Shown in pieces: positions 12,140 through 58,899 of a stretch of DNA of 64,000 nucleotides. How positions within the stretch are numbered: the stretch's first letter is position 1; the number at the start of each line of letters is the position of its first letter. A program made the position numbers and the translations under genes. The notes below the pieces were generated by a model. The model was not told the DNA's origin, made no database searches, and saw only the letters and a program-made list of their open reading frames with translations. Source of the DNA: Escherichia phage Phi1; sequence record EF437941; one strand, given 5' to 3'.

Positions 12140-12657
12140 TGACAGAAACTAAACCTATGTTAAAATTTGTTGTTCCTGTAAAAAAATTAGAGATAAACGG
12201 GAAACATATCAAGATCCCAAAAATGGGGATTAAGCAACATCGATTATTAAAAGATGTTCGTAGCTGTGATGAAACATTAAAGATTCTTCTTGATTCAATC
12301 TGTCCTGGGTTAAACGCTGCCGAGTCTGAATTGGTTATGCTTAACCTTTGTGCGTTTAATGGTAAGTGTCTGGAAGAAAAAGATGGTCTTAAGCTGTCTG
12401 ATGTGTATATTTGTACAGAGACTGAATTTACTTTAAATGGTAAAGTCTTTAAATTTAAAAATCCAATGTACACTTCTGACCCCATTATCGATGACGCTGA
12501 TTTCTTGAGTCATCATTATCACGATCCTAGTGTAGACTTCCATGATTTCCCAGCTTTTATTATGGATTGGGCTACAGGATTAAGAAAAACTATTGCGCTG
12601 GATACACCGGAAGGTACTATCTATGGTGGAATTAACATATTGGATCGCCTATCATGA
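12139..12657 (+). CDS. 28: baseplate hub distal subunit gp28
   Basis: 172-aa ORF overlapping the gp27 stop (ATGA), matching T4 gp28 (177 aa) by position. Confidence 0.75.
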   Translation: MTETKPMLKFVVPVKKLEINGKHIKIPKMGIKQHRLLKDVRSCDETLKILLDSICPGLNAAESELVMLNLCAFNGKCLEEKDGLKLSDVYICTETEFTLNGKVFKFKNPMYTSDPIIDDADFLSHHYHDPSVDFHDFPAFIMDWATGLRKTIALDTPEGTIYGGINILDRLS

Positions 12658-14387
12658 ATGACGCATTAACATCATTTCGCGGGATGCGCAAGGAAGCGGA
12701 AGAAAACCCGATTGATAAACTTAACAAATTAGATAAACTTGATTCTATTGATAATTTGCAAGCCGCTACCGAATTGGTGGCGGAGACAGTAGAACAAAAA
12801 TCTAATGAAGTTGTTGGTGCGGTCGAGGATAACACCGCAGCCAATGAATTGACGGCAGAAAATACACAATCTACCGCTGGCAATACCAAAAAAACTTATG
12901 AAGAATTGCAAAAACTCAATAATTTCTCTTCTCAGATGAATGAGAAATTACGTGGTTTTGGTGTTATGATGGAACGTAGATTTGGTGTTGTCAGTAAAAT
13001 GGCTAGCGGTATTGGTGCGATTGAAGAAGCACTGAAAAAACCGGAACAACCGCAAACAATGCCATCACCTCAGCCAGTTTTGCCTACTGTACCGGAACAG
13101 CCTAATAATGACAACTATCAAGGTCTTCCAAAGAAAAAACCGGATGTTGATGACCGAAAGAAAAAGAACGCCGCAGATAAGCGTAATGCCGATTCTATGG
13201 AAAATCTTCTTAAAGTTGTTCGTGGAGGATTTAAAGAAACCATAGGTATCTCTAATAAGGTCTTAGGGATGTTATTTAAGATCACCTTGACCGCTATGGC
13301 AGAAGCCGCAAAATGGGGTGCTATTTTGATGGGTATTGTTTTTGTCATTGATACCCTGATGGTTCATTTCAGATATTGGAGTGATTTATTCGAAACAAAA
13401 TTCAATGAATTTATGGATAAGGCCGGAGGATGGGCTGGTCCTATTAGCGATATTTTAACTACTGTTCGTCAGGTTCGAGATTATTGGTCTAAAGGAGAAT
13501 ATAAAGAATTAATTAAATCGCTGGTTATGGGTATTGGTGATGCATTCTATAAAACCTTTATCCAACTTGATCGAATTATCACTACTGGTATTGCTAAAAT
13601 TCTTCGTATGATCCCTGGTATGGGTGATTATGCCGATAAGTTAGAATACGGTGCTTTAAAGTCTGCTGTCGCTCAAGGCTATACGCCAAATGAAAGAGAA
13701 CTCGAATTAATGGATAAGGTCGAGTCTGAACATGAAGAAGACAAATATGGAGAGCGTACTGGTTGGACCGGAAAAGCCCGTGACATTGGCGAAGCTATTG
13801 GGGATTCTATTAAGGATAAAGTTAACGAAGGTCTTGTTAGTCTGGGCTGGAGAGATCAAAAGGATGTTGACGCAGAGAAACGACAAGAAGAATTAAAACG
13901 CGGGGAATATAAGTCTGTTTCTGCTGAACAACGATCTGCTAGTCGTAAACTTAGAATTAAAAGCGAGGGCGCGATCAATAATATTAATGAAGTTATGGAG
14001 AATTTGAGCGGTGACTATGACAAAGAAAGAATGGGAGAGTTGAAAAAGGATATTGATGTTTACCGTGAGCAAGTTCAAGATCCTACATTAGTTGAAAGTG
14101 ATCGTTCTCAGTTAGAGCGTCTTATTGAAAAATTTGATGAGATGTATGCTGATAAAACTAATGGTGTGGTTCCAACTAATCCTGTTCCTGCAACTGAAAC
14201 GGAAACAGCAAAACAAGCGGAACGTACTGAACAAATGCAGAAACAAGCTGCAATCCAGCAACAAACGACAAATCAGACCTCAAACGTAAATAATACACAA
14301 ATTGTAACAAACAATAGAACTGTTAAACAGGGTGCACCAACAACTAGAATTGATGCCCCCGGTACAATTAATATGGGGAACTTTTAA
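12654..14387 (+). CDS. 29: baseplate hub subunit / tail length determinator gp29
   Basis: 577-aa ORF following gp28, consistent with T4 gp29 (590 aa) in size and position; low-complexity and coiled-coil-rich. Confidence 0.75.
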   Translation: MNDALTSFRGMRKEAEENPIDKLNKLDKLDSIDNLQAATELVAETVEQKSNEVVGAVEDNTAANELTAENTQSTAGNTKKTYEELQKLNNFSSQMNEKLRGFGVMMERRFGVVSKMASGIGAIEEALKKPEQPQTMPSPQPVLPTVPEQPNNDNYQGLPKKKPDVDDRKKKNAADKRNADSMENLLKVVRGGFKETIGISNKVLGMLFKITLTAMAEAAKWGAILMGIVFVIDTLMVHFRYWSDLFETKFNEFMDKAGGWAGPISDILTTVRQVRDYWSKGEYKELIKSLVMGIGDAFYKTFIQLDRIITTGIAKILRMIPGMGDYADKLEYGALKSAVAQGYTPNERELELMDKVESEHEEDKYGERTGWTGKARDIGEAIGDSIKDKVNEGLVSLGWRDQKDVDAEKRQEELKRGEYKSVSAEQRSASRKLRIKSEGAINNINEVMENLSGDYDKERMGELKKDIDVYREQVQDPTLVESDRSQLERLIEKFDEMYADKTNGVVPTNPVPATETETAKQAERTEQMQKQAAIQQQTTNQTSNVNNTQIVTNNRTVKQGAPTTRIDAPGTINMGNF

Positions 14388-15445
14388 TGAAAATTAGTGT
14401 TATCAATGATGCCGTTGATAGCTTTAAAGCGGGGGTTAAAACCTCCGCTGGTTTTACCTCAAAAAATAAAGGGAAAACATTAACCGCTCAATTCCCCGCT
14501 GAACGTGCTAGCGGTAATGATGCTAGCGGTTATTATATCAACGACTTATATAATAATGGTCTGTTATTCACTGCATACGATTATACATCTCGTACTACTG
14601 GATCGTTGCGTGATTTCAGGAAAAAGAAAAATGTTGCTAGCGGTTTTGGCGGTAGCGTTAATATCGCTGGTTTTGATTTAAATTTGGGAGGGAGAAATGC
14701 TGCATTTGATCGAGAGGCAATTGCTAATATTCTTCTTCCTCGTAGTCAATCTGACGTTGACGCTGCTAGCCATAAGTTTAATGATGTTGGTGAATCTGTC
14801 ATTTCTCGCGGCGGTGGTACTTTAGGCGGTGCTCTTTCTAATATGGCATCTACTGCCGTTTTTGGTGGTATCGAAAGTATTACTGGTGGATACCTTGCCG
14901 ATCACGGTGAACAGATTTATAATACTGCGCGAAGCATGTATGCGGGTGCTGACGCACGAACTAAAAACTACGTATGGCATTTAACCCCACGTAGTATTGA
15001 AGACCTTCGCAATATTCTGATCATATACGAAACGTTTTTAGAATTGTCTTATGGATCTAGTGGTATTTCCAGCACCGCAAAAGAATTAAAAGCGGAAGTT
15101 GATGCGTGGTATAAAAATACACTATTGAGAAAATCCACCCCAGAGGAAGCGAAGAGAAATGATACTCTGTTTGAAGGGATCACCGATTTTCTATCAAACG
15201 CAATTACTGTATCTAACCCGACAATATGGATGATCTCTAACTTCGGTAAGCGTACATCGTTTGAAGGGCGTAGCGATGCATTTGGCCCCGCTCAGATCTC
15301 AAGTGTACGTCTGGACAAGTCGCCTGATGGTAAGTTTAATGGCCTTGCTATTTCTCCTAACTTGCCTAGTACATTTGTTCTTGAAGTATCATTTAGAGAG
15401 ATCTTGACACTTTCCCGTGGTACTATATTTGGGAGTGCGGTATAA
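14387..15445 (+). CDS. 48: baseplate tail tube cap gp48
   Basis: 352-aa ORF in the conserved 29-48-54 order, translationally coupled (ATGA overlaps). Confidence 0.75.
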   Translation: MKISVINDAVDSFKAGVKTSAGFTSKNKGKTLTAQFPAERASGNDASGYYINDLYNNGLLFTAYDYTSRTTGSLRDFRKKKNVASGFGGSVNIAGFDLNLGGRNAAFDREAIANILLPRSQSDVDAASHKFNDVGESVISRGGGTLGGALSNMASTAVFGGIESITGGYLADHGEQIYNTARSMYAGADARTKNYVWHLTPRSIEDLRNILIIYETFLELSYGSSGISSTAKELKAEVDAWYKNTLLRKSTPEEAKRNDTLFEGITDFLSNAITVSNPTIWMISNFGKRTSFEGRSDAFGPAQISSVRLDKSPDGKFNGLAISPNLPSTFVLEVSFREILTLSRGTIFGSAV

Positions 15446-16377
15446 TGTTTGATTTAAATGATTTTAACGAACAAGCCGCTAACCTTGACTTTCAGCGATC
15501 CAACTTATTCAGCGTGGCATTTGCCACCACTCCAAGTAATAAGACACAAGCGATCCTAGAAAGTATGGGCGGGGCGGTATATGATATTATACCAAATGCA
15601 TTAAATGACTATTTCGGGATTACTCGTGGTGATTATACTGACGCATTAACAAATCTTGCTGTACAGGGTGTTAGGCGTGCTGTTGATTCATCCGGTGTCA
15701 AAAAGTATCTTTTAGGTGCAATGTCATCCCGCGTAGTTCAATCTCTTCTGGGGCAATTTGATGTTGGTACATATGCGCTTGACTGGTTCAATATGGCATA
15801 TAAGACAAGCGGTCTTCTGGTGTATGCTGTTAAGGTTCCAGAAAACAGATTGAATTATGAAATGGACCGTAACCACAATGCGCCAAACATTCGAATTACC
15901 GGACGTGATTTTGATCCGCTTGTGTTGAGCTTTAGAATGGACTCTAGCGCATCAAACTATAGAGCAATGCAAGATTGGGTTAACTCAGTAGAAGACCCCG
16001 TCACAGGGCTTCGTGCGCTTCCTGTTGACGTTGAAGCGGATATTCAGGTCAACTTACATAACCGAATGGGAGTCCCTCACACGATCATGATGTTTAATGG
16101 TTGTGTTCCTGTTGGTGTGAGTGCACCGGAATTAACCTATGAAAACAACAACGAAATTACAACATTCGATGTTGTTTTTGCGTATAGGACTATGCAAACT
16201 GGTGCTGTAGGAGAGCAAGCCGCGCGAGAATGGATTGAGGATAAGGCAATAAACGCAATAACAAACACTTTCGGCAATAATTTACTTGATAGTGGGTTAT
16301 CTGCTGCTGGTAATGCTTTATCGCGTCTAAATGGCGTTGGTGGGCGTGTGGTGAATACTGTCACCAACTGGTTCTAA
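15445..16377 (+). CDS. 54: baseplate tail tube initiator gp54
   Basis: 310-aa ORF following gp48; T4 gp54 is 320 aa. Confidence 0.75.
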   Translation: MFDLNDFNEQAANLDFQRSNLFSVAFATTPSNKTQAILESMGGAVYDIIPNALNDYFGITRGDYTDALTNLAVQGVRRAVDSSGVKKYLLGAMSSRVVQSLLGQFDVGTYALDWFNMAYKTSGLLVYAVKVPENRLNYEMDRNHNAPNIRITGRDFDPLVLSFRMDSSASNYRAMQDWVNSVEDPVTGLRALPVDVEADIQVNLHNRMGVPHTIMMFNGCVPVGVSAPELTYENNNEITTFDVVFAYRTMQTGAVGEQAAREWIEDKAINAITNTFGNNLLDSGLSAAGNALSRLNGVGGRVVNTVTNWF

Positions 16378-16386
16378 TAAGCGAAA

Positions 16387-16410
16387 GGCGGGGATAATCC
16401 CCGCCTTTTT
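16387..16410 (+). terminator. Rho-independent terminator after gene 54
   Basis: Stem GGCGGGGA / TCCCCGCC with loop taa, followed by TTTTT. Confidence 0.65.
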
Positions 16411-16894
16411 ATTTTGCTAAATCATTGCAATATTTTAGTGCCTTAGTTTGAAATTCTGCGCTGTTAAGTTCTTCATAACGGTCATAATCACCGTTTAATG
16501 CTGCCTTTCTTGCTTCTTGCTCTATCTGCATGTCAGACATGATAATACAGCGATCCCGCGCTTTCATCTTCTCAAGTTGTATAGACTCTTCTTTCTGCTT
16601 GCGCAATTCTTCTTGACGCTTCTTTTCTTCTTGTGCTTTCTCTTCCCGCGCTTCTTTGATTGCATCCTTGAACATCTGCGTTTGTGGTGCTAAACCAACT
16701 TTAACGCGATCCACGTCTCGACGTTCCATTTTAGAAATAAAGCATGATTCGATCTGATCATCACTTGCATATGCTGCTTTACATTCACGAAGCAAGAAAA
16801 CCGGATCTGATTTAGCATTCATCATAGCTTCCATGTTGGCACAACCAGTAAGCATGAATGCAGCCGCAAGACCAATCAGTTTAATCATTTTCAT
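16409..16894 (-). CDS. putative lipoprotein (signal peptide plus lipobox LTGC), coiled-coil-rich
   Basis: N-terminus MKMIKLIGLAAAFMLTGCANM is a typical lipoprotein signal; start overlaps the stop of the upstream ART-like gene (ATGA). Confidence 0.65.
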   Translation of the reverse strand: MKMIKLIGLAAAFMLTGCANMEAMMNAKSDPVFLLRECKAAYASDDQIESCFISKMERRDVDRVKVGLAPQTQMFKDAIKEAREEKAQEEKKRQEELRKQKEESIQLEKMKARDRCIIMSDMQIEQEARKAALNGDYDRYEELNSAEFQTKALKYCNDLAK

Positions 16895-17715
16895 TTAGTC
16901 ACCTCACCGAAAATTGTAAATTGTCTACGATTCTCATCGCCGAAAGATTCTACTACGTCGTTTACCTTGACGCAAGTCCCGCGCGGTAAAATTACTTCAC
17001 ATTCGCAAGGGTTCCATGCAATTGACCCAACAACAAAACCTTTATGATCTTTTACGTCAATTACCCATGATACATTACAAGAATGTTGCATCTTTCCGGT
17101 CATGGATTCATATCGATTCTCACAATAAAGGCTAGTGCTATTTGAAAGCCAGCCTCCAAAGATGATCGGTGTCATGCTGGTCGATACAAAGTTTTTAAAG
17201 GTAAACTCCTTATCTTCAATAATACGCTCTATTGTCTGAATGTCAAGATGTTGACCGCGATAAAGAGTACCGTTTAACTTTTCGGTTTTATCCATGACAC
17301 AATCCATCAAATCAACAATCTCTGATATCTCATCGGTCATGTCTTCTTCCCCTAAGAGAGCACCATTTACCCATTCGTATTGTTCAGACACATAATCACA
17401 GATTGCATTATATTCTGCTGGGGTTATGTTGTTATGTTTGTAATGTTTGAATACATTATCTCCAAAGTCTTCGGAGTGTACTTCATACATCACATTAATG
17501 ATTTTCTTGACAAATCCATAATCTTGTGTCTCACGCTCAAGGAAGCGGATAACCTTCACATAATCATCAAAGTTAATCTGATCGCTGATCATCTCAGTGA
17601 TCATGTAACCATTAATCCCCTCAATGTCATATGTTTCGATGTAATTATCCATACGTTCCATCATTGATTCGCGTGATTCTTCTGAAAGACGAAAATCCTG
17701 TAATTTCTTGAACAT
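16891..17715 (-). CDS. Alt-like ADP-ribosyltransferase paralog (ART domain)
   Basis: Carries the Alt C-terminal motifs: LYRGQ, FTFKNFVSTSMTPIIFGGW (compare Alt AFYFKNYVSTSLAPNIFGGW) and ECEVILPRG; 274 aa. Confidence 0.65.
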   Translation of the reverse strand: MFKKLQDFRLSEESRESMMERMDNYIETYDIEGINGYMITEMISDQINFDDYVKVIRFLERETQDYGFVKKIINVMYEVHSEDFGDNVFKHYKHNNITPAEYNAICDYVSEQYEWVNGALLGEEDMTDEISEIVDLMDCVMDKTEKLNGTLYRGQHLDIQTIERIIEDKEFTFKNFVSTSMTPIIFGGWLSNSTSLYCENRYESMTGKMQHSCNVSWVIDVKDHKGFVVGSIAWNPCECEVILPRGTCVKVNDVVESFGDENRRQFTIFGEVTK

Positions 17716-17737
17716 TTTAAACCTCCCATATAACAGA

Positions 17738-17769
17738 AAACGGGGCTAGTATAAAACTAGTCCCCGTTT
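17738..17769 (-). terminator. Rho-independent terminator after alt (minus strand)
   Basis: 12-13 bp stem AACGGGGCTAGT / ACTAGTCCCCGTT with loop ataaa; U-tract on the minus strand. Confidence 0.55.
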
Positions 17770-17793
17770 GAGTCAACCATTATTTCTTAAAAA

Positions 17794-19845
17794 TTACATT
17801 TTAAATTTATCTGGCATTGCGTCTACAGATACCAGATCAGCGATAAGCTGACGTAGAGTTGCCTTATCTGCTTTCTTACGTTCGGTTTTAGCTTCGCTAA
17901 TGAAGCTGGAGAAAGACAGGTCAGAAGCAGGTTTAACAACACCTTCACGGATGAATGCATCACCGTCCGCGATCATCTCACCAGATTCTTGTAATGCTGC
18001 CAGTTCACTTTTGTTCATAATATGTGCCTCAATGTAATAAGTTTCTTGTGAATCCGTAGATGCCGTAGCACGAGTTACCGTATCAAAGGATAACACAACA
18101 CCGCGAGGAAGTAAAATCTCGCATTCTTTGTAAGCAAATGCTTTGTTACCTACTGGCAATACAGGGATGTTTTCCGCGCCAGCAATGGAGAAAGCAACAT
18201 TAGCGCCACCTTCACCGCGAGATCCAGCCATAGAATCTACCCCAGCAACGGCACTAGCCACGTTTGCATTCCAGCCGCCAAAAATGTTAGGTGCAAGGGA
18301 AGTGCTCACGTAGTTTTTAAAGTAAAACGCTTTTTGCTTACGTGCAGTTTCCCACATTTGAGACCGGAAGTCCATACCACGATACAGAATAGTACCCGGA
18401 TCAAGTTTAACGCCATAGTTAGAGAAGGCATTATCCAGTGCATCGCACATCTTGACCAATTCTTCTGGATCTGCGATTCCCTCAAACTCTTCCAGCTTGC
18501 GATCAGTTAGGAAGTTGTTCATATTGATGTATGCTGCATCGGCATATTCGCTCAACACAAAACCTTCCGCGCCCGGCAGATCAAGATCAATATCTGCCAT
18601 CATTTCACCCATGTTGCTAGCAATTGCTTCAAACATACCGGACGCAACATTACGAAGGGCATCGGTTTTAATCTGGGTGATATGACTACGCAGCATTTCA
18701 GCTTTTACATCTGCTGGCATAGACTGGTCTACTCGATCCATTGCCAGGGCGGTGATCTTGTTTTCGAATACTTCCTCGCTCATGATTTCTTTTAAGCGTT
18801 TGATTGATGCTGCGATAACTTCCGCAGACAACGGATCATATTGATCCTGAACTTTTACCAGTTCGCTTACTGCGTATTTTGCATCGGCTTCGCTTTCAAA
18901 AATAGTACGCATGAAACCATAGCGAGTGATAATATCACTTGTCCAGTCATTCAGAGAACGGGCGGTTGAACGTTCTAAGGCTTGACGGTCAATCAGAGTA
19001 TTAAACTGTTTCTTAGGTTCTGCTTCGGTGATATCTTCTTCCGGTTTAAGATTAATTTTTTCTGGATGATTCACATAGTCGCTGTTATAGGTCGCTTGAG
19101 TTTTCAGCATTTCTTCTTTAGTCAAACGAGATTTAGCCGCTACGCGTTGTTCCGCTTCCGCGTTTCGTTCTTCTTCTGACACAAGACTAGCCGCATATGC
19201 CTCATCTTTAGTCAGAGATTCACCAGTAGCCTTAGATACCCAGCGATCACCTAAATCACTTTCTACTTTAGTGAACAAGGATTCATCAAGTTTAATCCCT
19301 TTAATCTTATCAATCGCCATCCCGCGACGCTTGACAACAACTAAAGCGATCTTTTTGCTGGTCATTACTTCCTGCTGGAATACTTCAAACTTCGGTGTAC
19401 GACGCACCAAACGCTCTATAACGCGCTTAACCAGTTCGGTCTTACCTTTCATGCGGGATACGTTAAAACGGAACATAACAGCGTCTAATTGCGCTTTACG
19501 GGCTGTTTCCATAACCACATCAAACGCACTTGCCATAACTGCAATCGGGTTATCGCCTAGACCATTTTTAAGCTGTACAATACGACCGCTTTTGTTCATT
19601 TCGCACAGTACAACATGTGCGGTCTTGTCACCCATACGAATGATTTTAGGTGTTTTGTTGGTGAAGTTACAAAGACGGACAATCACATCTTTATCGCGTG
19701 TCTGTACTGCAAAAAGCTGTTTAGGATTCTGCTTCGGCTTTAAGCACTGTACCGGAGCAATACTGCCAAAGTTTTCTTCCTCTTCCGTCAACAGCCATTT
19801 CTCGAAAGATTCAATCATTAGATCGTCGATTTCTAAGTTAAACAT
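17794..19845 (-). CDS. alt: Alt ADP-ribosyltransferase
   Basis: 683 aa (T4 Alt is 682 aa); FTKVESDLGD, YRGMDFRS, AFYFKNYVSTSLAPNIFGGWN and EILLPRG match T4 Alt FTKVESKVGD, VFYFRNFVSTSLYPNIFGTWM and EVILPRG. Confidence 0.85.
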   Translation of the reverse strand: MFNLEIDDLMIESFEKWLLTEEEENFGSIAPVQCLKPKQNPKQLFAVQTRDKDVIVRLCNFTNKTPKIIRMGDKTAHVVLCEMNKSGRIVQLKNGLGDNPIAVMASAFDVVMETARKAQLDAVMFRFNVSRMKGKTELVKRVIERLVRRTPKFEVFQQEVMTSKKIALVVVKRRGMAIDKIKGIKLDESLFTKVESDLGDRWVSKATGESLTKDEAYAASLVSEEERNAEAEQRVAAKSRLTKEEMLKTQATYNSDYVNHPEKINLKPEEDITEAEPKKQFNTLIDRQALERSTARSLNDWTSDIITRYGFMRTIFESEADAKYAVSELVKVQDQYDPLSAEVIAASIKRLKEIMSEEVFENKITALAMDRVDQSMPADVKAEMLRSHITQIKTDALRNVASGMFEAIASNMGEMMADIDLDLPGAEGFVLSEYADAAYINMNNFLTDRKLEEFEGIADPEELVKMCDALDNAFSNYGVKLDPGTILYRGMDFRSQMWETARKQKAFYFKNYVSTSLAPNIFGGWNANVASAVAGVDSMAGSRGEGGANVAFSIAGAENIPVLPVGNKAFAYKECEILLPRGVVLSFDTVTRATASTDSQETYYIEAHIMNKSELAALQESGEMIADGDAFIREGVVKPASDLSFSSFISEAKTERKKADKATLRQLIADLVSVDAMPDKFKM

Positions 19846-19891
19846 TTTATATCCTCTAGTTGATAACCTATAAACCTATATTTATGAAAAA

Positions 19892-19906
19892 GGGGCTTAA
19901 CGCCCC
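19892..19906 (-). terminator. hairpin terminator upstream of alt (minus strand)
   Basis: GGGGC-ttaac-GCCCC hairpin with flanking U-tract on the minus strand; lies between gene 19914..20126 and alt. Confidence 0.4.
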
Positions 19907-19913
19907 CCTTTTA

Positions 19914-20126
19914 TTATAATGCACCATCGAGCAATTGCTCTAAGGTGTATCCTGAATAGTCTTTTTCAATCAGGGTATATTTTCCTACTCGTTTAATACA
20001 ACCGCGCATTTCAACGTATTCTGCGTAGTTGATGGTACGAGTTGTTCCATCTTCCAGTAATGCAGTACCGATTTCGTTAATGCGGTCATAAGTTACGTCG
20101 GTAATGATGATTTCGATGTTAGCCAT
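19914..20126 (-). CDS. hypothetical protein (70 aa)
   Basis: ORF preceded by the conserved PeSL leader and RBS. Confidence 0.55.
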   Translation of the reverse strand: MANIEIIITDVTYDRINEIGTALLEDGTTRTINYAEYVEMRGCIKRVGKYTLIEKDYSGYTLEQLLDGAL

Positions 20127-20156
20127 TTGATACTCCTTAGTAGTTCGTTTCGGTAT

Positions 20157-20191
20157 GGGTGTATTATGATATACACCCTCTGTTATGTCAA
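20157..20191 (-). promoter_or_regulatory. PeSL-type early promoter cassette (stem-loop plus -35 TTGACA)
   Basis: Plus tgtcaa at 20186-20191 (minus TTGACA); palindrome gggtgtat-tatgat-atacaccc at 20157-20178; conserved leader gtttcggtatgggtgtattat and RBS before the ATG at 20126. Confidence 0.6.
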
Positions 20192-20198
20192 CAACTTT

Positions 20199-20378
20199 TT
20201 AGAACATTTTTGAAATTAATTTTGCTTTGATTTCGCAGAGAACACCTAAAGATTTCTCGTCACCCGCTTTTGCTGCTTCTGATTGCATTTTTGAAATGGC
20301 TTCAATGTCAGTGCAATTATAAGCCGCTTGAACTTTAGCGATTGCGATGATTGCCGATTCGATGGTTAAGTGTTTCAT
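20199..20378 (-). CDS. hypothetical small protein (59 aa)
   Basis: ATG 20376-20378 preceded by GGAGAATCAAAC leader; translation MKHLTIESAIIAIAKVQAAYNCTDIEAISKMQSEAAKAGDEKSLGVLCEIKAKLISKMF. Confidence 0.45.
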   Translation of the reverse strand: MKHLTIESAIIAIAKVQAAYNCTDIEAISKMQSEAAKAGDEKSLGVLCEIKAKLISKMF

Positions 20379-20415
20379 GTTTGATTCTCCTTTCGTTTCG
20401 GTATGTGTGTATTAT

Positions 20416-20440
20416 GGGGGATCACCGATCCCCCTGTCAA
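20416..20440 (-). promoter_or_regulatory. PeSL-type early promoter cassette
   Basis: Palindrome gggggatcaccgatcccc (20416-20434) abutting plus tgtcaa 20435-20440; conserved leader downstream. Confidence 0.6.
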
Positions 20441-20447
20441 CAACTTT

Positions 20448-21002
20448 TTAGTTATTTTTTAATTGCTCATCTTGCAATAGGGAAATCACATGCTGGCGAT
20501 GTTCTTCCGATTGAGGGACACCGAAAAAGTTTGTTTTGTAGAAATACTCTAATCGGTCTTCTCGTGTGCTCTCTTCCATCATGATCGCGGGTAGTCCGAG
20601 ATTTCGGAAACGTCGCTTTTCTGCTGGCGTAAAATCACTGTAATACAGCATAGAATCATCGTTACCAGCAATGCTAAACTCATCATTCATGAAGGAGAAT
20701 ATTGCGTTTAAACGCTGTTTACCGTCCACGATTTCGATCTCATAGCGAGAGCCATCATCAATCTTAGCCATTGCGATAGCACCAACCGGAAAATCATTAA
20801 TCAGGTTTTCGATAAACATACGTTTGTTTTCGGTGTCCCATACCAAAGGACGCTGATAATCTGGGTTCATGTTGATATAGCCATCTTCTAACCACGCCTC
20901 ATAAACAGAGATGACAAAGTTTTTAGTATTGGTATAGTAACGGCGTTTAGGCGTTAAACGGTTCATGTTATAGTCTCCTGAATGGATCATCACGTAAATC
21001 AA
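20448..21002 (-). CDS. DUF262 (ParB-like nuclease/NTPase domain) protein
   Basis: Motifs NPDYQRPLVWD and VDGKQRLNAIFSF match the DUF262 signature (FQR..W ... DGQQR). Confidence 0.65.
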   Translation of the reverse strand: MIYVMIHSGDYNMNRLTPKRRYYTNTKNFVISVYEAWLEDGYINMNPDYQRPLVWDTENKRMFIENLINDFPVGAIAMAKIDDGSRYEIEIVDGKQRLNAIFSFMNDEFSIAGNDDSMLYYSDFTPAEKRRFRNLGLPAIMMEESTREDRLEYFYKTNFFGVPQSEEHRQHVISLLQDEQLKNN

Positions 21003-24266: not shown

Positions 24267-24301
24267 GGGGATATTATGCTATATCCCCGATCCGGTGTCA
24301 A
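24267..24301 (-). promoter_or_regulatory. PeSL-type early promoter cassette
   Basis: Palindrome ggggatat-tatgct-atatcccc (24267-24288), which contains the -10 CATAAT on the minus strand; plus tgtcaa at 24296-24301 with 17-nt spacer. Confidence 0.6.
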
Positions 24302-35698: not shown

Positions 35699-35733
35699 GG
35701 GGGTATATTAATACCCCCGTTATTCAGTGTCAA
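35699..35733 (-). promoter_or_regulatory. PeSL-type early promoter cassette
   Basis: Palindrome gggggtat-atta-ataccccc (35699-35718); plus tgtcaa at 35728-35733. Confidence 0.55.
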
Positions 35734-53920: not shown

Positions 53921-54040
53921 TACAGTTGGTTAAAATGTAACCAAAACGAAGAAAGATCTTTAGAATAATAGAAAATTTGTTTCGGTTAAAAATTAGTCAG
54001 TGCCTACGGCACGTCGCGAAGCGATATTTTGTTAACATTC

Positions 54041-54048
54041 TATAAATA
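54041..54048 (+). promoter_or_regulatory. T4-type late promoter (TATAAATA) for gene 36
   Basis: Exact TATAAATA 33 nt upstream of the gp36 ATG. Confidence 0.5.
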
Positions 54049-54081
54049 CTCGGAACTATAACTAATTTTTGAGGTTACTTT

Positions 54082-55572
54082 ATGGCAGATTTGAAATATG
54101 GATCTACTGTAGGTGGATCTCCCATTTGGACGCAAGGAAACTTGACGATCCAGCCAGCGGGGGATCAGCTTTTCTACAAAGGTCATAAAATCTATACCGC
54201 TTTTGATAGACCTTCGGCTACCGATTTTGATGCTGTTAGTGCATCCGAAGGTGGCACATTTCAAAAGCAAGTTCATTTCGAGGAAGGTTTAAGCGTAGGT
54301 AGCGCATCGGCTGGAGAAACTAAAAAGAATGGTATCTTTAAAGGTCAGAGTGACGCTGCTAATTTTGACGGTGTAAGCTGGGGTTTGCATTCATGGAAGT
54401 CAATCGGCTTTGTTAATGCCCGTGATGGCGTTATAATGGCGTATATTGACACCACAACGGGCGAATTTAAGTCTAAAGGGACTATCGAAGGGACAACCAT
54501 TAAAGACACAGGTCAACGCGTCTATAGCCCTGTTAATAAACCAACGAATAATGATTTAGATTTGGTGTCTCGTCGCGGTGATACCCTCACAGGAACATAT
54601 AATTTAAACACCGTCACTGTTAAACTATCGGTTGATTCGAAATTAATTGCAAGGGAACGTGATTTAATTAATTTTGATGCGACTAAGATCTATTATGGTA
54701 ACGTTCTTGATACGTTGGTATTCCGAAGTAAAGATGAGCCTACCATTTTTGTTAATGGCAAAGAAGGTCGTTTTTATCACACCAACAATAAACCAACTAA
54801 AGCCGATGTTGGACTAGGCAATGTCACCAATGATGCACAGGTTAAACGTGCTGGTGATATTATGGAAGGTAACTTGCAAGCGCCTAGAATGTTGGCGACA
54901 AACGATCCTGCTGGTCCGAATGAATTGGTTCGTTTGAGCTACTTTGAGAGAAAATCAATGGTAGCAAATCCAACCATCATTGGAAACGTTGATTGGAACA
55001 CTCTTATTAATCGCGGTATCTATCGTGTGGAAAATGCTGGGTCGGGTACTAATAAACCGTCTGATAGCTATTATAACGGCGTTTTGATGGTATATCGCCC
55101 AGAAGATGCGGTCGGTACTCGTCGAATTGTTCAGGTGTATTATCCTGAATCTATTGACCATCCGATGTGCTGGCGTTCTTGTTCTAATGAATCATGGACT
55201 GCATGGAACTATGTAGATCACCGTAAATTAGCCGATATTCGCTATGTTAACGTAACTGGCGATACCATGACAGGACCGTTAACTGTTCCGGCGGCAAACG
55301 GTGTTAGAACAGCTAAAACTAACTATAATGGGGATAATTGCTATGCAGCCTTAAGTGGTGCTGATGGCACTGCTATGATTCACCGTATCAGTGATATTAA
55401 AGGGACCGAAAAGCTGGGGATCACCCACGACTCAAAGGTCGTGTTTTTCCGTTCTAGAAACAATACTCAAACCGTGGACCGCTATCAGCTTTATCATGAA
55501 GGTAATAAACCTACTCCGGCTGATGTTGGCGCAGTTCCACTTAATGCGGTGATTGATTTTGGTACTTTCTAA
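54082..55572 (+). CDS. 36: long tail fibre distal connector gp36 (enlarged)
   Basis: MADLKYGSTVGGSPIWTQGNLTIQPAGDQLFYKGHKIYTAF matches T4 gp36 MADLKVGSTTGGSVIWHQGNFPLNPAGDDVLYKSFKIYSEY; 496 aa versus 221 aa in T4. Confidence 0.8.
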   Translation: MADLKYGSTVGGSPIWTQGNLTIQPAGDQLFYKGHKIYTAFDRPSATDFDAVSASEGGTFQKQVHFEEGLSVGSASAGETKKNGIFKGQSDAANFDGVSWGLHSWKSIGFVNARDGVIMAYIDTTTGEFKSKGTIEGTTIKDTGQRVYSPVNKPTNNDLDLVSRRGDTLTGTYNLNTVTVKLSVDSKLIARERDLINFDATKIYYGNVLDTLVFRSKDEPTIFVNGKEGRFYHTNNKPTKADVGLGNVTNDAQVKRAGDIMEGNLQAPRMLATNDPAGPNELVRLSYFERKSMVANPTIIGNVDWNTLINRGIYRVENAGSGTNKPSDSYYNGVLMVYRPEDAVGTRRIVQVYYPESIDHPMCWRSCSNESWTAWNYVDHRKLADIRYVNVTGDTMTGPLTVPAANGVRTAKTNYNGDNCYAALSGADGTAMIHRISDIKGTEKLGITHDSKVVFFRSRNNTQTVDRYQLYHEGNKPTPADVGAVPLNAVIDFGTF

Positions 55573-55577
55573 TTTTA

Positions 55578-55601
55578 GCGGGGATTATCTCCCCGCTTTT
55601 C
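55578..55601 (+). terminator. Rho-independent terminator after gene 36
   Basis: Stem GCGGGGA / TCCCCGC with loop ttatc, followed by TTTT. Confidence 0.55.
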
Positions 55602-55642
55602 TAAATAATATTATTCTAATAACCGTTTAAGGATTTTATAAA

Positions 55643-58585
55643 ATGGCAGATTTAAGCAGAATCCAATTTAAACGCACTAGCACTAAAGGTCGTAAACCTG
55701 ATGCTAGTACGATGAATCCGGGGGAATTGGCAATCAACCTTGCGGATCAATATCTTCTTACTAAAAATGATTCCGGTGCTATTATCAATTTAAGTTGTCC
55801 TCCGGTTTATGACCGCGATGTTACAATGGCGGGTAAGGTTAAAGGTAATAATTATATCTTAAGTAAAACCGCCAACTATCTGGAAGATCAGACAGCGCGA
55901 GATCTTAATTACTTTGGTGCTTTCCGAACTAATGGACAAGATGGTCTTTTAGATCTAACTCTTAATGTTCCTCATTCTGCTGGCGTTAATCATGGTCGAG
56001 GATTTACTTTCCGTTATGCGACTGGCGGATCTCGTGTTGAAACCTATGGGTATAATGCACAGGGACAAAAAGCATTTAGCTATAAAATGTATCATGAAGG
56101 TGATAAACCTACCCCATCGGAATTGAACGTTTATAGCAAACAAGAAGTTGACCGTATGTTTGTTAAAACCGTTAAACTTGCTACAGTTCCTGTTGATATC
56201 GTTGACGGTTATTTTAAATTAGCAACTGCAATGATTCCGCAAAACGGTCGTAGTGTATTTTTCCGTATTCATGGTGGTAACGGATATAACGTTACTGCAT
56301 ACGATCAAGTTGATATTGTAGAAATTGTTATTCGCAGTGGAAATAATCGTCCTAAAGGTGTTAACGTTATTGCATACCGCCGAAATACAAACAAAGCATT
56401 TGATGTTTTGGCTGTTAATACTTCGGGTGATAACTATGATATCTACGTGAAATATCAGCGTTACACTGATAACGTTATTGTTGAATTTGGTAAAAGTGTT
56501 GATGTTGATCTGGTGGTTCATGACGTTCCAGACTTTGTTGTTGATCGTCCTGTTGGCGATAATGTTATTGGCGGTCGCGCGGTAACTCTTTTCAACACCG
56601 AAAACAAACGAGGTGTGTTGAGTTTTGACGATAACACACAAAATAGTTATGATATTGTTCACTTGAGTAATGATAGGGGTACTGGACGGAAATATATTCG
56701 TAAATTCCGTAGCAACTATAACGAAATGATCTGGCATGAGACGGTTCAAGGTTCTACTTATCGACTCGCCACGGGTAGTACAGATGCCCAGGAGATTCTA
56801 TCCGTTGAATCTAGTAGCTCTATTGCTGGGACTCATAAAGGTAATATTCTTTCTGGTCGAATGATGTTGGGTGGTGGTAGTAATGTTATTACCTTGCGGC
56901 GTCCTGCTGGTCAATCCAACCATATTACGTTTCAAGATAATCGGACTGGATCTATTACCCGTCAAGGGTGGATCGGTTATGGTAATGCTGATACTAACGT
57001 TTTTGAATGGTATAGTGATGTGGGTGGTAGTTCTATTCGTCACCACATCGACGGACAGATCGAATTTCAGACAGGTAACACAAAACGAGTTTATACTAAC
57101 GCTCAATTCATCTCAATGAATAGCGACGCCTACCGAATGCTCTACGGTAATTACGGTGCATTCTGGCGTAATGACGGCGTTAAAGTTTATCTTCTTTCTA
57201 CTGCCGAAAATGATAAATTGGGCGGGTGGAATGCCTATCGTCCATTCATTTATGATTTAACTTCCGGTAACGTTCAATTAGGCGGTGATGGTAACGAAGA
57301 TGCATTAACGTTAGAACGTGCTTCTCGTGCCGCTCGATTTAGTAATGACGTTTACATTAAGAAAGGGCATTTGACTTTCGACGCTGGGCGATTAAATTCC
57401 CGCGATTATTTCCGGTTTAACCATTGGGGTGATAGCAATAACGCGCGTGATAACATCTTACAGCTTGACGATAGCATGGGTGCACACTTCACCACTGAAC
57501 GTACTTTAGCAACTGGTGCAATTAAAACTAAATTCTTCGGTAATTTGGAATCTGCTGGTCAAATTAAATGGGGTAAAGGGACCGCCACATCTACGTTTAC
57601 TCTACGTGTATGGGGTAGCGATAGCCGTAAACAAATATTTGAATGCGGCGATGAAAGCGGGTGGCATTGGTATACCCAACGCGCGGGCGGTCCGGATACT
57701 TCTGCAATTGAGTTTGCCATCAACGGTACTCTTAGGCCGCAAGCAATTACCACTGGCGGTAATATTATTTTGGGCGGTTCTGATATTGATTTTCGTCGCA
57801 CTGGTAATAAGCATATCTGGTTTAGAGATCCGAACGGTTTAGAGTTAGGCTTGATGTACTGCGATGATGCTGGTGTTATTCGCTTCCGTGGTCAGAAACA
57901 AGCTCAGGCGTGGAAATTTGCAGATAAAATGATCCAGTTGGAATCTGGCACTGTATCCGGTGGCGGTAATGGCCTGATTCGTGGTGAAGTTGCTGGCGGT
58001 AGTTGGGCTAGCTGGCGTGACCGTCCTGCTGGTCTTATGGTTGGGTGTCCTCAATCCGTTGACTCGGCACATAACGTATGGAAAGCGACGCATTGGGGTA
58101 AATATCACATTGCAGCAATGGGTGTACATGTTCCTAGTGGTACTATTACCAATGCTTTAGCTCGCCTAAACGTTCATGACGCCAACTTTGACTTTAGCGC
58201 CTCCGGTGATATGACGATAGGTCGTAACGGTTCGTTTAACGATGTTTACATTCGTTCTGATGCTCGCCTTAAAATCAATAAGGAAGAGTATAAAGAGAAT
58301 GCCACAGATAAAGTTAATCGCTTGACGGTATACACCTATGACAAGGTTAAATCTTTAACCGACCGTACTGTCATTGCTCATGAAGTTGGTATTATTGCTC
58401 AGGATCTTGAAAAAGAATTGCCGGAAGCCGTAACAACTTCTAAGATCGGCGACCCAGATAATCCAGAAGAGATCTTAACAATTTCTAACTCTGCTGTCAA
58501 CGCTCTTTTAATTAAGGCGTTTCAGGAAATGAGCGAAGAATTGAAAGCCGTTAAAGCTGAACTAGCGGAACTTAAAAAGAATTAA
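55643..58585 (+). CDS. 37: long tail fibre distal subunit gp37 with C-terminal intramolecular-chaperone-like domain
   Basis: MADLSRIQFKRTSTKGRKPDASTMNPGELAINLADQ matches T4 gp37 [36 protein letters not shown]; the C-terminal ~110 aa (VYIRSDARLKINKEEYK...NALLIKAFQEMSEELKAVKAEL) looks like a self-cleaving tail-spike chaperone domain. Confidence 0.85.
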   Translation: MADLSRIQFKRTSTKGRKPDASTMNPGELAINLADQYLLTKNDSGAIINLSCPPVYDRDVTMAGKVKGNNYILSKTANYLEDQTARDLNYFGAFRTNGQDGLLDLTLNVPHSAGVNHGRGFTFRYATGGSRVETYGYNAQGQKAFSYKMYHEGDKPTPSELNVYSKQEVDRMFVKTVKLATVPVDIVDGYFKLATAMIPQNGRSVFFRIHGGNGYNVTAYDQVDIVEIVIRSGNNRPKGVNVIAYRRNTNKAFDVLAVNTSGDNYDIYVKYQRYTDNVIVEFGKSVDVDLVVHDVPDFVVDRPVGDNVIGGRAVTLFNTENKRGVLSFDDNTQNSYDIVHLSNDRGTGRKYIRKFRSNYNEMIWHETVQGSTYRLATGSTDAQEILSVESSSSIAGTHKGNILSGRMMLGGGSNVITLRRPAGQSNHITFQDNRTGSITRQGWIGYGNADTNVFEWYSDVGGSSIRHHIDGQIEFQTGNTKRVYTNAQFISMNSDAYRMLYGNYGAFWRNDGVKVYLLSTAENDKLGGWNAYRPFIYDLTSGNVQLGGDGNEDALTLERASRAARFSNDVYIKKGHLTFDAGRLNSRDYFRFNHWGDSNNARDNILQLDDSMGAHFTTERTLATGAIKTKFFGNLESAGQIKWGKGTATSTFTLRVWGSDSRKQIFECGDESGWHWYTQRAGGPDTSAIEFAINGTLRPQAITTGGNIILGGSDIDFRRTGNKHIWFRDPNGLELGLMYCDDAGVIRFRGQKQAQAWKFADKMIQLESGTVSGGGNGLIRGEVAGGSWASWRDRPAGLMVGCPQSVDSAHNVWKATHWGKYHIAAMGVHVPSGTITNALARLNVHDANFDFSASGDMTIGRNGSFNDVYIRSDARLKINKEEYKENATDKVNRLTVYTYDKVKSLTDRTVIAHEVGIIAQDLEKELPEAVTTSKIGDPDNPEEILTISNSAVNALLIKAFQEMSEELKAVKAELAELKKN

Positions 58586-58626
58586 GGAAAACTCCCAGGG
58601 AAGGGAACTACTAAGGAGAAACGGCT

Positions 58627-58866
58627 ATGGTCTATAATATCGTCATTGGTGCTTTGTCTAATTTCGGAATGAAATTATTGTCAAAGTTAATTAGTGAAAA
58701 GATGCTCACTAAAATTTTCTTCTATTGCGCTCGTCGTCTTGCGGCTTATACCAATACGCCAATTGATGATCGTTTTGTGGAAGAACTTTATAAGGAGTTT
58801 AATAAAAATCAGTCAGAAGATAGTAACGAGCAAGATAAACCTAGTGATAGTCAACTACCTAAATAA
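58627..58866 (+). CDS. hypothetical protein (79 aa) in the position of T4 gene 38
   Basis: ORF between gp37 and holin t; no resemblance to T4 gp38 recognised. Confidence 0.45.
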   Translation: MVYNIVIGALSNFGMKLLSKLISEKMLTKIFFYCARRLAAYTNTPIDDRFVEELYKEFNKNQSEDSNEQDKPSDSQLPK

Positions 58867-58899
58867 GAGTACACTGTCATAGTTATCTTAGGGCGTTAT

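Follow-up and report, generated by a model that had tools for sequence, protein, structure and literature searches.

A short Alt-like ADP-ribosyltransferase gene and its coupled lipoprotein gene in Krischvirus: a probable early two-gene cassette

The 64,000-nucleotide stretch of Escherichia phage Phi1 DNA analysed here (record EF437941; hereafter the window) comes from a Krischvirus, an RB49-like, T4-type coliphage. Inspection of the region between alt and the convergent gene for gp54 confirmed two minus-strand open reading frames, at the positions given in Table 1, in which the stop codon of the first and the start codon of the second overlap in an ATGA visible in the sequence. The first frame encodes a short Alt-like ADP-ribosyltransferase (the short ART) and the second a lipoprotein precursor. 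The proposal of an earlier note on this DNA, which was made from the sequence alone, that the two genes are co-transcribed is supported, and they are also translationally coupled. The order alt, short ART, lipoprotein is invariant in every lineage examined (seven or more, down to 18–29% identity), and the pair is present in 57 phage records. Beyond the lipoprotein gene, the gap to gp54 is occupied by a terminator hairpin with a 12-bp stem, including seven GC pairs, and T-runs on either side; it is annotated on both strands in GEC-3S. The arrangement is unlike that of T4, as the note had remarked. T4 instead carries alt.-1/alt.-2, which stem from a duplicated first part of alt that has since decayed, and alt.-3, whose product lacks a signal peptide.

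The short ART gene is already known. An identical protein is encoded by the RB49-strain record OZ035808.1 and by ECD7, and the gene is the same, with no difference, as RB49p183/RB49ORF183c of PHROG 15144. RB49p183 is described in the RB49 record as 'ADP-ribosyltransferase; similar to C-terminal part of T4 Alt', and RB49ORF183c has been listed as an alt paralogue since 2006 (Nolan et al. 2006). The finding is real and, to this extent, largely ordinary.

Table 1. Features of the region between alt and gp54, in window coordinates
Feature	Position	Strand	Basis
alt, full-length Alt-like ADP-ribosyltransferase, 683 aa; parent paralogue	17794..19845	-	Open reading frame; PHROG 802; PF03496
CATAAATA box, late-promoter-like, ~30 nt upstream of the alt start codon	19879..19886	-	Sequence reading
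PeSL (promoter-early stem-loop)	17732..17776	-	Promoter scan, folding, conservation, GEC-3S promoter annotation
Shine–Dalgarno sequence GGGAGG of the short ART gene	17722..17727	-	Sequence reading
Short Alt-like ART, 274 aa, predicted arginine-type mono-ADP-ribosyltransferase (RB49p183/RB49ORF183c)	16891..17715	-	PF03496; PHROG 15144
Lipoprotein precursor, predicted outer-membrane type, 161 aa	16409..16894	-	Open reading frame; PHROG 16112 (unknown function)
Allelic cassette: mature-lipoprotein coding segment, swapped whole in some Krischviruses	16426..16856	-	Comparison with 011D4
Bidirectional intrinsic terminator hairpin, gap between the lipoprotein gene and convergent gp54	16383..16409	.	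12-bp stem
gp54 baseplate tail-tube initiator, convergent neighbour bounding the cassette	15445..16377	+	Open reading frame; annotation of identical genes

The three motifs by which the enzyme had been recognised are present in the short ART, at residues 151–155 (LYRGQ), 176–180 (FVSTS) and 238–246 (ECEVILPRG) in full-length numbering. They align with LYRGM (487–491), YVSTS (512–516) and ECEILLPRG (574–582) of the Alt encoded in the window, to which the short ART is 37% identical over 109 residues (E=1e-16). Residues 82–266 match the Pfam family PF03496 (ADPrib_exo_Tox) with a score of 59.3 bits (E=4.3e-16), the curated cut-off being 23.4 bits, so that, as judged from the sequence, the family match is well past chance level. 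The protein also has a family of its own, PHROG 15144 (E=3e-198). The catalytic R-S-ExE set is intact, comprising R153, S178-T179-S180 and E238-C-E240; these residues are invariant in eight orthologues of the short ART, down to 29% identity, and align with their counterparts in both the window Alt and T4 Alt. In the R-S-E clade, ExE rather than QxE is the mark of arginine specificity, and because the short ART has ExE, it is predicted to be arginine-specific.

An AF2 model of the short ART has a mean pLDDT of 79.9 and a pTM of 0.74, the underlying alignment being shallow, with 12 proteins supplied by a word-indexed homologue search. Foldseek matched this model to Certhrax, Vis, C3bot, iota Ia and CDTa, with a probability of 1.00 and E values of ~1e-10, and the predicted fold is that of a C3-like ART. 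An intact open reading frame, encoding 264–288 aa, is found in every lineage, and the dN/dS of 0.035, at a dS of 0.30 (Nei–Gojobori), indicates strong purifying selection. The protein has no signal peptide and matches none of the PADLOC defence models.

Alignment with hhalign reveals that residues 69–274 of the short ART are homologous to residues ~397–612 of Alt (probability 99.9%), whereas residues 1–68 make up a helical N-terminal region with no detected match in Alt. The different N-terminal region claimed for the protein in the earlier note is therefore correct for approximately the first 68 residues and incorrect for the remainder. The window Alt itself matches PHROG 802 end to end (E=6e-180), has PF03496 at residues 425–610 and is 27% identical to T4 Alt over 695 residues. 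Its orthologues carry PF26846 (Tevenvirinae_ADPRT) in addition to PF03496; in precomputed Pfam lists, PF26846 is found only on long Alts (660–683 aa), and the short ARTs have PF03496 alone.

T4 Alt is a packaged and injected arginine-specific mono-ADP-ribosyltransferase of the Alt/VIP2 R-S-E clade. The catalytic half of the short ART is homologous to it, with 31% identity to T4 Alt residues 413–593, and the two proteins have in common the R, STS and ExE motifs and an IFGGW segment. Their genes lie at corresponding positions, with the ligase side on one flank and gp54 on the other. The short ART differs from T4 Alt in lacking the N-terminal ~390 residues, which contain PF26846, and the C-terminal ~70 residues; in having a sigma-70 promoter of the PeSL type rather than a late-type box; and in the loop that follows the STS motif, which has a strongly conserved sequence of its own (NSTSLYCENRY), different from that of Alt. 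These differences make packaging of the short ART doubtful and suggest that its targets may be different. Tandem alt paralogues occur at the same duplication-prone locus by gp54 in other phages, namely T4 (alt.-1/alt.-2), 44RR (ORF187c/188c), Dhakavirus MX01 (three tandem alt copies) and Biquartavirus Riv-10 (two). The alt copies in these other Straboviridae are full-length (~640–710 aa) or decayed N-terminal fragments, whereas here the C-terminal catalytic half is an independent gene with a lipoprotein gene behind it.

Host takeover by the three ADP-ribosyltransferases of T4 is a textbook example, and the attachment of RNA to proteins by ModB has recently drawn interest. The short ART resembles ModA and ModB in being small (274 aa, compared with 200–207 aa), in its R-S-E class and in its predicted early expression from a host-type promoter. 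Since Krischvirus carries a single Mod gene, which is closer to ModB (33% identity, E=8e-11) than to ModA, the total of ARTs is three, as in T4. The short ART is nevertheless not a member of the Mod family. Its nearest relatives are Alts, it derives from alt and not from mod, it lies in a different region of the genome, and its relation to ModA and ModB is no closer than the ART superfamily; tblastn searches with T4 ModA and ModB find RB49p014 only.

A promoter scan of the DNA between alt and the short ART located a −35 hexamer, TTGACT (17776..17771), a 17-nt spacer and a −10 hexamer, TATACT (17753..17748), which overlap a GGGG...CCCC hairpin (~17769..17738) followed by a T-run. The whole element, AAATAAtgg-TTGACT-17-TATACT with its hairpin and then GGGAGG and ATG, has the composition of a PeSL. 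This class has been described in RB49 and phi1, where reporter assays of PeSL elements demonstrated promoter activity and, for PeSL211/210, terminator activity (PMC2839356). The hairpin in the window has a folding energy of −20.6 kcal/mol (z=−6.1), and its counterparts across lineages range from −18 to −21 kcal/mol (z of about −5 to −6); a search of Rfam returned no structured RNA in the region at E ≤ 0.1. The site is annotated as a promoter in GEC-3S. Both hexamers and the hairpin, the latter with compensatory changes in its stem, are kept in four to five diverged lineages with ART identities of 41–62%, and the DNA between alt and the ART remains 85% identical, compared with 65–73% for the coding DNA on either side. 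In the window, the motif TTGACW..GGGG..CCCC occurs four times, compared with an expectation of 0.05. This early promoter/terminator element does not figure in the earlier note.

Comparison with the PeSLs of RB49 and phi1 (Arbiol et al. 2010) reveals the same AT-rich stretch, TTGAC(A/T) and GGGG...CCCC stem-loop over the spacer and −10 box, and then a non-core early gene with its Shine–Dalgarno sequence and start codon. The window element lies outside the set tested by those authors, and its activity here is a prediction; it also differs in following the conserved, presumably late gene alt rather than lying inside a run of ORFans, and in being conserved well beyond RB49 and phi1. The promoter scan found no sigma-70 promoter for alt. 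Upstream of alt is a late-type box, CATAAATA, which departs from the T4-type late promoter TATAAATA at a single position, and by analogy with T4 alt is probably a late gene; no perfect TATAAATA is present near either alt or the short ART. On this reading of the DNA, the short ART would not be expressed late in the manner of T4 Alt, as it has no TATAAATA upstream and its PeSL sits behind a terminator hairpin. The conserved PeSL between the two genes points instead to early synthesis of the ART–lipoprotein pair, like that of the Mod enzymes, and to a short ART that is probably not packaged as Alt is.

The signal sequence of the lipoprotein is as the earlier note described it, with MKMIKLIGLAAAFM-LTGC, Cys18 and a KE-rich central helix following. 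Residues 1–17 constitute a signal peptide of the Lgt/LspA type (MKMIKLIGLAAAFM-LTG-C18), judged by the pattern [LVI][ASTVI][GAS]C after a positive n-region and a hydrophobic h-region, and lipidation is predicted. Every allele and lineage retains a lipobox, as LTGC, LNGC, LFGC, MTGC or LVGC. The +2 residue is Ala19 (Ser in two lineages) and never Asp, for which reason the protein is likely to be sorted to the outer membrane by Lol. The mature part, of 144 residues, has four cysteines (38, 51, 116 and 156) that are kept across alleles and lineages, and its AF2 model (pLDDT 88) is all-helical with a helix of ~62 residues. The dN/dS of 0.10, at a dS of 0.98 (Nei–Gojobori), indicates that the gene is functional. 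No fold match was found in the PDB or BFVD and no match to a known protein family; the PADLOC defence models gave a marginal match only (E=0.005), which is not significant. A profile search of 1.84e9 representative proteins for homologues yielded 11 clusters. Ten of these are proteins of 103–174 residues, and in all six cases in which the contig was examined the gene has these same phage surroundings. The remaining cluster is a weak match to a protein of 1252 residues. We conclude that the lipoprotein represents an orphan all-helical family, confined to this phage clade and always found at this position. An o-spanin was considered and set aside, without a dedicated test, on the grounds that the promoter is of the early type, that there is no adjacent i-spanin, holin or endolysin, and that the 144-residue helical protein is not short and proline-rich.

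The two genes of the pair have different histories. The mature part of the lipoprotein is exchanged as an allelic cassette, with ~30% identity between alleles, next to an ART that stays 98–100% identical; this is seen in Whisky, 011D4 and JK32, where lipoprotein identity is 28–31%. In phage 011D4, DNA identity is ~98% on both sides (window 20897..16857 and 16425..12412), and there is no nucleotide match between. At the junction of the ART and lipoprotein genes, dS jumps from 0.30 to 0.98. An average dN/dS of 0.10 does not support positive selection on the lipoprotein and gives no sign of an arms race; we read its divergence as that of old alleles shuffled by recombination.

What, then, is the short ART? 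The locus is prone to alt duplication, as T4 alt.-1/alt.-2, Dhakavirus MX01 and Riv-10 illustrate, and the gene is truncated relative to alt, as would be expected of a decaying, functionless duplication remnant like T4 alt.-1/alt.-2. To call it an N-terminally truncated alt duplicate, the outcome that the earlier note had set against its own proposal, is apt as description and agrees with the RB49 annotation and with Nolan et al. (2006), but as a verdict of decay it fails, the gene being old, conserved and catalytically intact. The low dN/dS, the uninterrupted reading frame in every lineage with catalytic residues invariant to 29% identity, the confident ART fold, and a conserved promoter and Shine–Dalgarno sequence of its own refute a remnant for practical purposes and leave it scarcely credible. 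It is unlikely, if not negligibly so, that the short ART is a second packaged head protein, made by late read-through from alt, trimmed by gp21 and injected like Alt. The gene does lie directly 3′ of alt in the same orientation, and a survey of viral ARTs argues that those with a genomic setting like that of T4 alt are, in general, delivered from the head (PMC9503650). In one lineage (L017), moreover, the alt–ART gap is only 26 nt and has no −10 box, so that the ART must be read off the alt transcript. The N-terminus, MFKKLQDFRLSE|E, contains an L-x-E site (L-S-E, residues 10–12) and resembles the gp24 propeptide, MTHIFTELLRE, and I/L-x-E occurs within the first 13 residues of several orthologues. 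The scan for such capsid-targeting gp21 sites matched gp24 and the ART, but its pattern was built around the ART sequence, a few matches to it are expected by chance, and the motif is not conserved in L017 or in a further lineage, L016; the idea is retained only within this minor alternative. Against packaging stand also the absence of the whole N-terminal part of Alt, PF26846 included, the strong hairpin and T-run after alt, the conserved sigma-70 promoter and the lack of a late-promoter box at the short ART. The best reading is that of a distinct host-modifying enzyme, as the earlier note had proposed: a second, intact Alt-like ART.

That note had also entertained a toxin with a membrane-localised partner. 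An ART and a lipoprotein forming a functional pair, the latter serving in immunity, targeting or regulation, would account for an adjacency that is invariant in seven or more lineages, down to 18–29% identity, and for the conserved coupling, with a Shine–Dalgarno sequence inside the C-terminal EV codons of the ART. We nevertheless regard such a pair as very improbable, because of the allele swapping and the export of the lipoprotein from the cytoplasm. A classical Sec/Lsp lipobox removes the lipoprotein from the compartment in which the ART finds its NAD+, lipoprotein alleles of ~30% identity stand beside ARTs of 98–100% identity, dS is discordant, and the recombination boundary falls exactly at the gene junction; thus neither the shared compartment nor the co-variation of a toxin and its immunity protein is seen. 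Neither protein has a significant PADLOC match, the lipoprotein matches no known protein family, and ATGA overlaps and tight gene packing are the norm in T4-type genomes. Alternatively, the lipoprotein might mask the phage's own long-tail-fibre receptor, as an exclusion protein of the T5 Llp or phi80 Cor kind. Its predicted outer-membrane sorting and early promoter, the existence of several very different alleles, a weak PHROG match to Cor (E=0.007) and the lack of any Imm or Sp homologue in the ~162 kb covered of a ~164-kb Krischvirus genome are consistent with this. The Cor match, however, covers the signal peptide only (residues 1–45), no stretch passing by itself, and no fold match was found in the PDB or BFVD. 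Alleles A and B each occur with both gp38 adhesin types and with all gp37-tip identities, so that the lipoprotein allele does not co-vary with the gp37 tip or the gp38 adhesin, and Whisky (allele B) and Cognac/RB49 (allele A) share O-antigen and OmpA-dependent receptors (PMC9569957). Receptor masking is therefore quite improbable. With T4 Sp and Imm, T5 Llp and Cor as a group, the lipoprotein shares its small size, export and predicted early expression; it differs from them in having no similarity of sequence or fold and no co-variation with receptor-binding proteins, and an exclusion role for it is putative.

The reading that we favour, and consider reasonably probable, is that of a two-gene early cassette of Krischvirus, in which an Alt-derived short ART is coupled to a lipoprotein with a separate job. 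It accommodates both an identified Alt homologue whose catalytic residues and fold are intact under purifying selection and the conserved promoter and hairpin, lipobox, synteny and allele swapping; the early timing, the lack of packaging, the arginine specificity, the targets and the function of the lipoprotein are its conjectural parts. The short ART would have arisen from an old tandem duplication of alt, in which the catalytic half (Alt ~397–612) was kept and the N-terminal ~390 residues and the C-terminal tail were lost. Transcripts of alt would stop at the PeSL hairpin, and host RNA polymerase would start a new transcript within the 3′ arm of that hairpin, which would escape termination because its start lies inside the arm. 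The short ART would then be newly synthesised within the opening minutes of infection and act in the cytoplasm on host proteins with NAD+, like T4 ModA and ModB in timing and size and unlike the packaged, injected Alt. Because Krischviruses carry one Mod gene, which is ModB-like, it plausibly supplies the third ART activity of T4.

Translation of the lipoprotein is coupled to that of the ART through the ATGA overlap and a Shine–Dalgarno sequence that falls within the conserved 'EV' codons (GAG-GT) at the end of the ART gene. The product would leave the cytoplasm, receive its lipid at Cys18 and reach the outer membrane, as an elongated helical protein that is probably stabilised by disulfides and whose job would be apart from the enzyme's. 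Our best guess is an early function in the envelope, for example superinfection exclusion at a periplasmic step in the manner of Sp and Imm, for which the lack of an Imm or Sp homologue leaves room. A functional link between the two proteins may exist, the pair being kept in every lineage seen with its coupling signals conserved. It is distinctly unlikely, though worth stating, that the two genes are a real two-part early module that together replaces T4 ModA plus Imm/Sp, in which the ART would reprogram a cytoplasmic host target and exchangeable alleles of a fast-diverging outer-membrane lipoprotein would close the envelope to secondary infection, a new and structurally unprecedented class of superinfection exclusion.

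The ART–lipoprotein cassette does not overturn current understanding. It does indicate that the ART set of RB49-like phages, which are used in phage therapy, differs from that of T4, consisting of Alt, one ModB-like enzyme and an Alt-derived short enzyme. We propose that one catalytic domain is used here in two forms, one packaged and injected and the other made on site, and the timing and targets of the short ART would show how freely phages re-tool such a domain. The lipoprotein, a conserved, clade-restricted orphan with swap-in alleles, is a candidate for a new function, in exclusion or elsewhere in the envelope, that could be tested cheaply.

The short ART, an Alt-like ADP-ribosyltransferase, and the lipoprotein are encoded, as an earlier note on this DNA had proposed, by two minus-strand open reading frames joined through an ATGA overlap; both frames and the overlap were confirmed.

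Features of the alt, short ART and lipoprotein locus, in window coordinates
Feature	Position	Strand	Remarks
alt	17794..19845	-	683 aa
short ART ORF	16891..17715	-	274 aa
lipoprotein ORF	16409..16894	-	161 aa
bidirectional terminator	16383..16409		end of minus-strand run, facing convergent gp54 (baseplate gene)

Over 1.6 kb, the short ART/lipoprotein locus is 100% identical to that of phage Cognac and 95–99.6% identical to 56 other records, which come from RB49-like phages (genus Krischvirus, Straboviridae) wherever taxonomy was read. The full window is identical to none of the phages in the collection. The best record matches are 98–98.6% identical over its first 24 kb and 95% identical in the gp36–gp37–holin (tail-fibre) region at 54000..59000, and Cognac is missing from the best 60 matches to the gp37 tip and the best 8 nucleotide matches listed. 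Judged from these matches, the phage is a mosaic Krischvirus.

The short ART gene is already annotated and has been noted in the literature. The RefSeq record of RB49 describes the equivalent RB49p183 as 'ADP-ribosyltransferase; similar to C-terminal part of T4 Alt', and RB49ORF183c, 44RR ORF188c and T4 alt.-1/alt.-2 were recognised as paralogous alt duplications by Nolan et al. 2006 (PMC1524935). The alt locus is duplication-prone: T4 retains a degenerate duplicate of the beginning of alt, and full-length paralogues lie in tandem between DNA ligase and gp54 in Dhakavirus MX01 (three copies) and Biquartavirus Riv-10 (two). A 96-aa ORF of alt.-3 size adjoins gp54 in MX01. Peculiar to the RB49 clade is the survival of the catalytic half of alt as a separate short gene. 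RB49 has one Mod gene, nearer ModB than ModA, and tblastn with ModA and ModB against about 162 of the ~164 kb Krischvirus genome (RB49) and the window revealed no further Mod gene; the clade would thus have three ARTs, as does T4, with the short ART in place of the second Mod.

The short ART scores 59 bits against Pfam PF03496 (ADP-ribosyltransferase exoenzyme; cut-off 23 bits). Among PHROG families it belongs to a separate one, 15144 'ADP-ribosyltransferase', and matches that of Alt, PHROG 802, as well. Its catalytic core is 37% identical to that of the neighbouring Alt, and profile–profile comparison equates residues ~69–274 with Alt ~397–612 at a probability of 99.9%, no Alt counterpart being detectable for the first ~68 residues. 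The catalytic set, R153, S178-T179-S180 and E238-x-E240, aligns with the same residues in the window Alt and T4 Alt and is unchanged in all eight orthologues compared, at overall identities down to 29%. The AlphaFold model (pLDDT 80, pTM 0.74) combines helices in the N-terminal part with a β core, and Foldseek relates it to Certhrax, Vis, C3, iota and CDTa with E about 1e-10. The dN/dS is 0.035 (window versus a human-gut contig). From all these results we conclude that the short ART is an active-looking enzyme and no remnant, which supports the suggestion of a distinct host-modifying enzyme. The sole poorly modelled stretch, residues 185–208, is the loop that follows STS. Its sequence is strongly conserved inside the short-ART family (NSTSLYCENRY) and differs in Alt, and it may be a substrate-specificity element.

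Alt and the short ART are 78 nt apart. This interval contains an A-rich stretch and, after it, TTGACT-17 nt-TATACT, which is annotated as a promoter in GEC-3S. A hairpin with a GGGG...CCCC stem (−20.6 kcal/mol, z=−6) encloses the promoter spacer and −10 box and is followed by a T-run. The same hexamers occur in four further lineages whose ARTs are merely 29–62% identical to the short ART, with the hairpin retained by compensatory changes (CTAG/CTAG, TCAG/CTGA, ACAG/CTGT); DNA identity in lineage L007 is 85% for the alt–ART spacer and 65–73% for the coding DNA on either side. These features identify a predicted 'promoter-early stem-loop' (PeSL) cassette, a class described in RB49 and phi1 for which promoter and terminator activities have been demonstrated (PMC2839356). 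The pattern TTGACW..GGGG..CCCC has 4 matches in the window against 0.05 expected; further exact matches lie at 24267..24301 and 35699..35733 (minus strand), and all 4 are in early-gene orientation. Two near-consensus TTGACA-17/18-CATAAT promoters, at 20411..20440 and 20163..20191 (minus strand), stand upstream of ORFs 20199..20378 and 19914..20126, both preceding alt; the −10 box of the latter promoter is overlapped by a stem-loop. They look like additional PeSL and ORFan cassettes, which would place alt within a hyperplastic region. Three genes upstream of alt, ORF 20448..21002 (minus strand, 184 aa) has an orthologue on a gut-metagenome contig with Pfam PF03235 (GmrSD_N/DUF262-type domain), and so represents a phage-borne copy of the domain found at the N-terminus of a type IV restriction enzyme.

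Upstream of alt is a late-type box, CATAAATA, and a promoter scan found no sigma-70 promoter for this gene. From this box and the conserved PeSL we infer that alt transcripts would end at the hairpin and that host polymerase would begin a fresh early transcript inside its 3' arm, making the short ART and the lipoprotein early products synthesised in the infected cell, unlike Alt. T4 Alt is packaged and injected. Packaging of the short ART in the same way is kept alive by lineage L017, in which there is no room for a promoter between alt and the ART, so that the ART must come from the alt transcript, and by an L-S-E site at residues 10–12 that resembles the gp24 propeptide. This resemblance is, however, weak and unconserved, and the short ART lacks the N-terminal Tevenvirinae_ADPRT region present in all long Alts.

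The lipoprotein begins MKMIKLIGLAAAFM-LTG-C18-A, a textbook lipobox with a +2 residue other than Asp, from which outer-membrane sorting is expected. Every allele and lineage keeps Cys 38, 51, 116 and 156, along with a few other residues. The model is confident (pLDDT 88) and all-helical with one helix of ~62 residues, and the PHROG 'Cor' match is confined to the signal peptide. When 1.84 billion representatives were scanned in full with HMMER, 11 clusters emerged; wherever a contig was available, the gene is flanked by a short ART gene on one side and gp54 on the other, in a T4-type phage. Its dN/dS of 0.10 indicates purifying selection and hence a functional protein.

A functional link between the two products might be read from the invariant gene order alt, short ART, lipoprotein and from the conserved translational coupling, the lipoprotein Shine–Dalgarno lying inside the GAG-GT codons of the short ART's C-terminal E-V. 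At window 16895..16910, these Glu-Val/Ile codons form the Shine–Dalgarno in 6/6 lineages compared, as GAG GTN or, in L007, GAG ATT. The lipoprotein is nevertheless predicted to be exported from the cytoplasm, and its history differs from that of the short ART. Phage 011D4 has ~98% DNA identity to the window on either side of 16426..16856 and no nucleotide similarity within this mature-lipoprotein segment; the break is located likewise in Whisky and JK32, and in all three the short ART is 98–100% identical whereas the lipoprotein is 28–31% identical. Against the gut contig, dS is 0.22–0.30 for alt and the short ART and 0.8–1.0 for the lipoprotein, gp54 and gp48. The allele swaps and the dS jump show that two histories meet at the signal-peptide codons, where recombination has set the boundary. 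A toxin with a membrane partner, as the earlier note envisaged, is therefore unsupported; a specific physical partnership is unlikely, and co-expression more likely reflects timing and genome economy.

The three independent replacements have their breakpoints at the signal-peptide codons (16841..16894) or immediately behind them, and the dS jump lies there too. Alleles P0042–P0045 and Whisky share the window's signal peptide, which differs slightly at its end in 011D4 and JK32; this conserved sequence would seem to serve as a linker for recombination. Against window 12349..16343, Whisky and JK32 show 75–78% DNA identity in gp54, gp48 and much of gp29 (tape-measure), and upstream of the lipoprotein gene they are 98% identical throughout; in Whisky, the annotated gene found in place of gp29 is broken into two ORFs. 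The lipoprotein alleles are old and recombination-shuffled, and pervasive positive selection is not the driver.

Receptor masking of the Llp/Cor type predicts an allele matched to the receptor-binding protein. No such match was found among gp38 types and gp37-tip identities: alleles A (window, Cognac, RB49) and B (the ~30%-identical type) are each found alongside either type of gp38 and over the full gp37-tip identity range. Receptor use is the same in Whisky, which has allele B, and in Cognac/RB49, which have allele A (PMC9569957), and masking of this kind was rejected. A tblastn search of about 162 of the ~164 kb Krischvirus genome detected no homologue of Imm or Sp, the proteins with which T4 excludes superinfecting phage. 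Given these two results, the best guess, though one of low confidence, is an early role on the periplasmic side, for example preventing DNA entry of a superinfecting phage.

To what was known of this locus we add a conserved PeSL upstream of the short ART, which would imply early expression without packaging; the synteny of the short ART and lipoprotein genes across the clade, together with their translational coupling; and an orphan lipoprotein that is replaced allelically, in the manner of a cassette.
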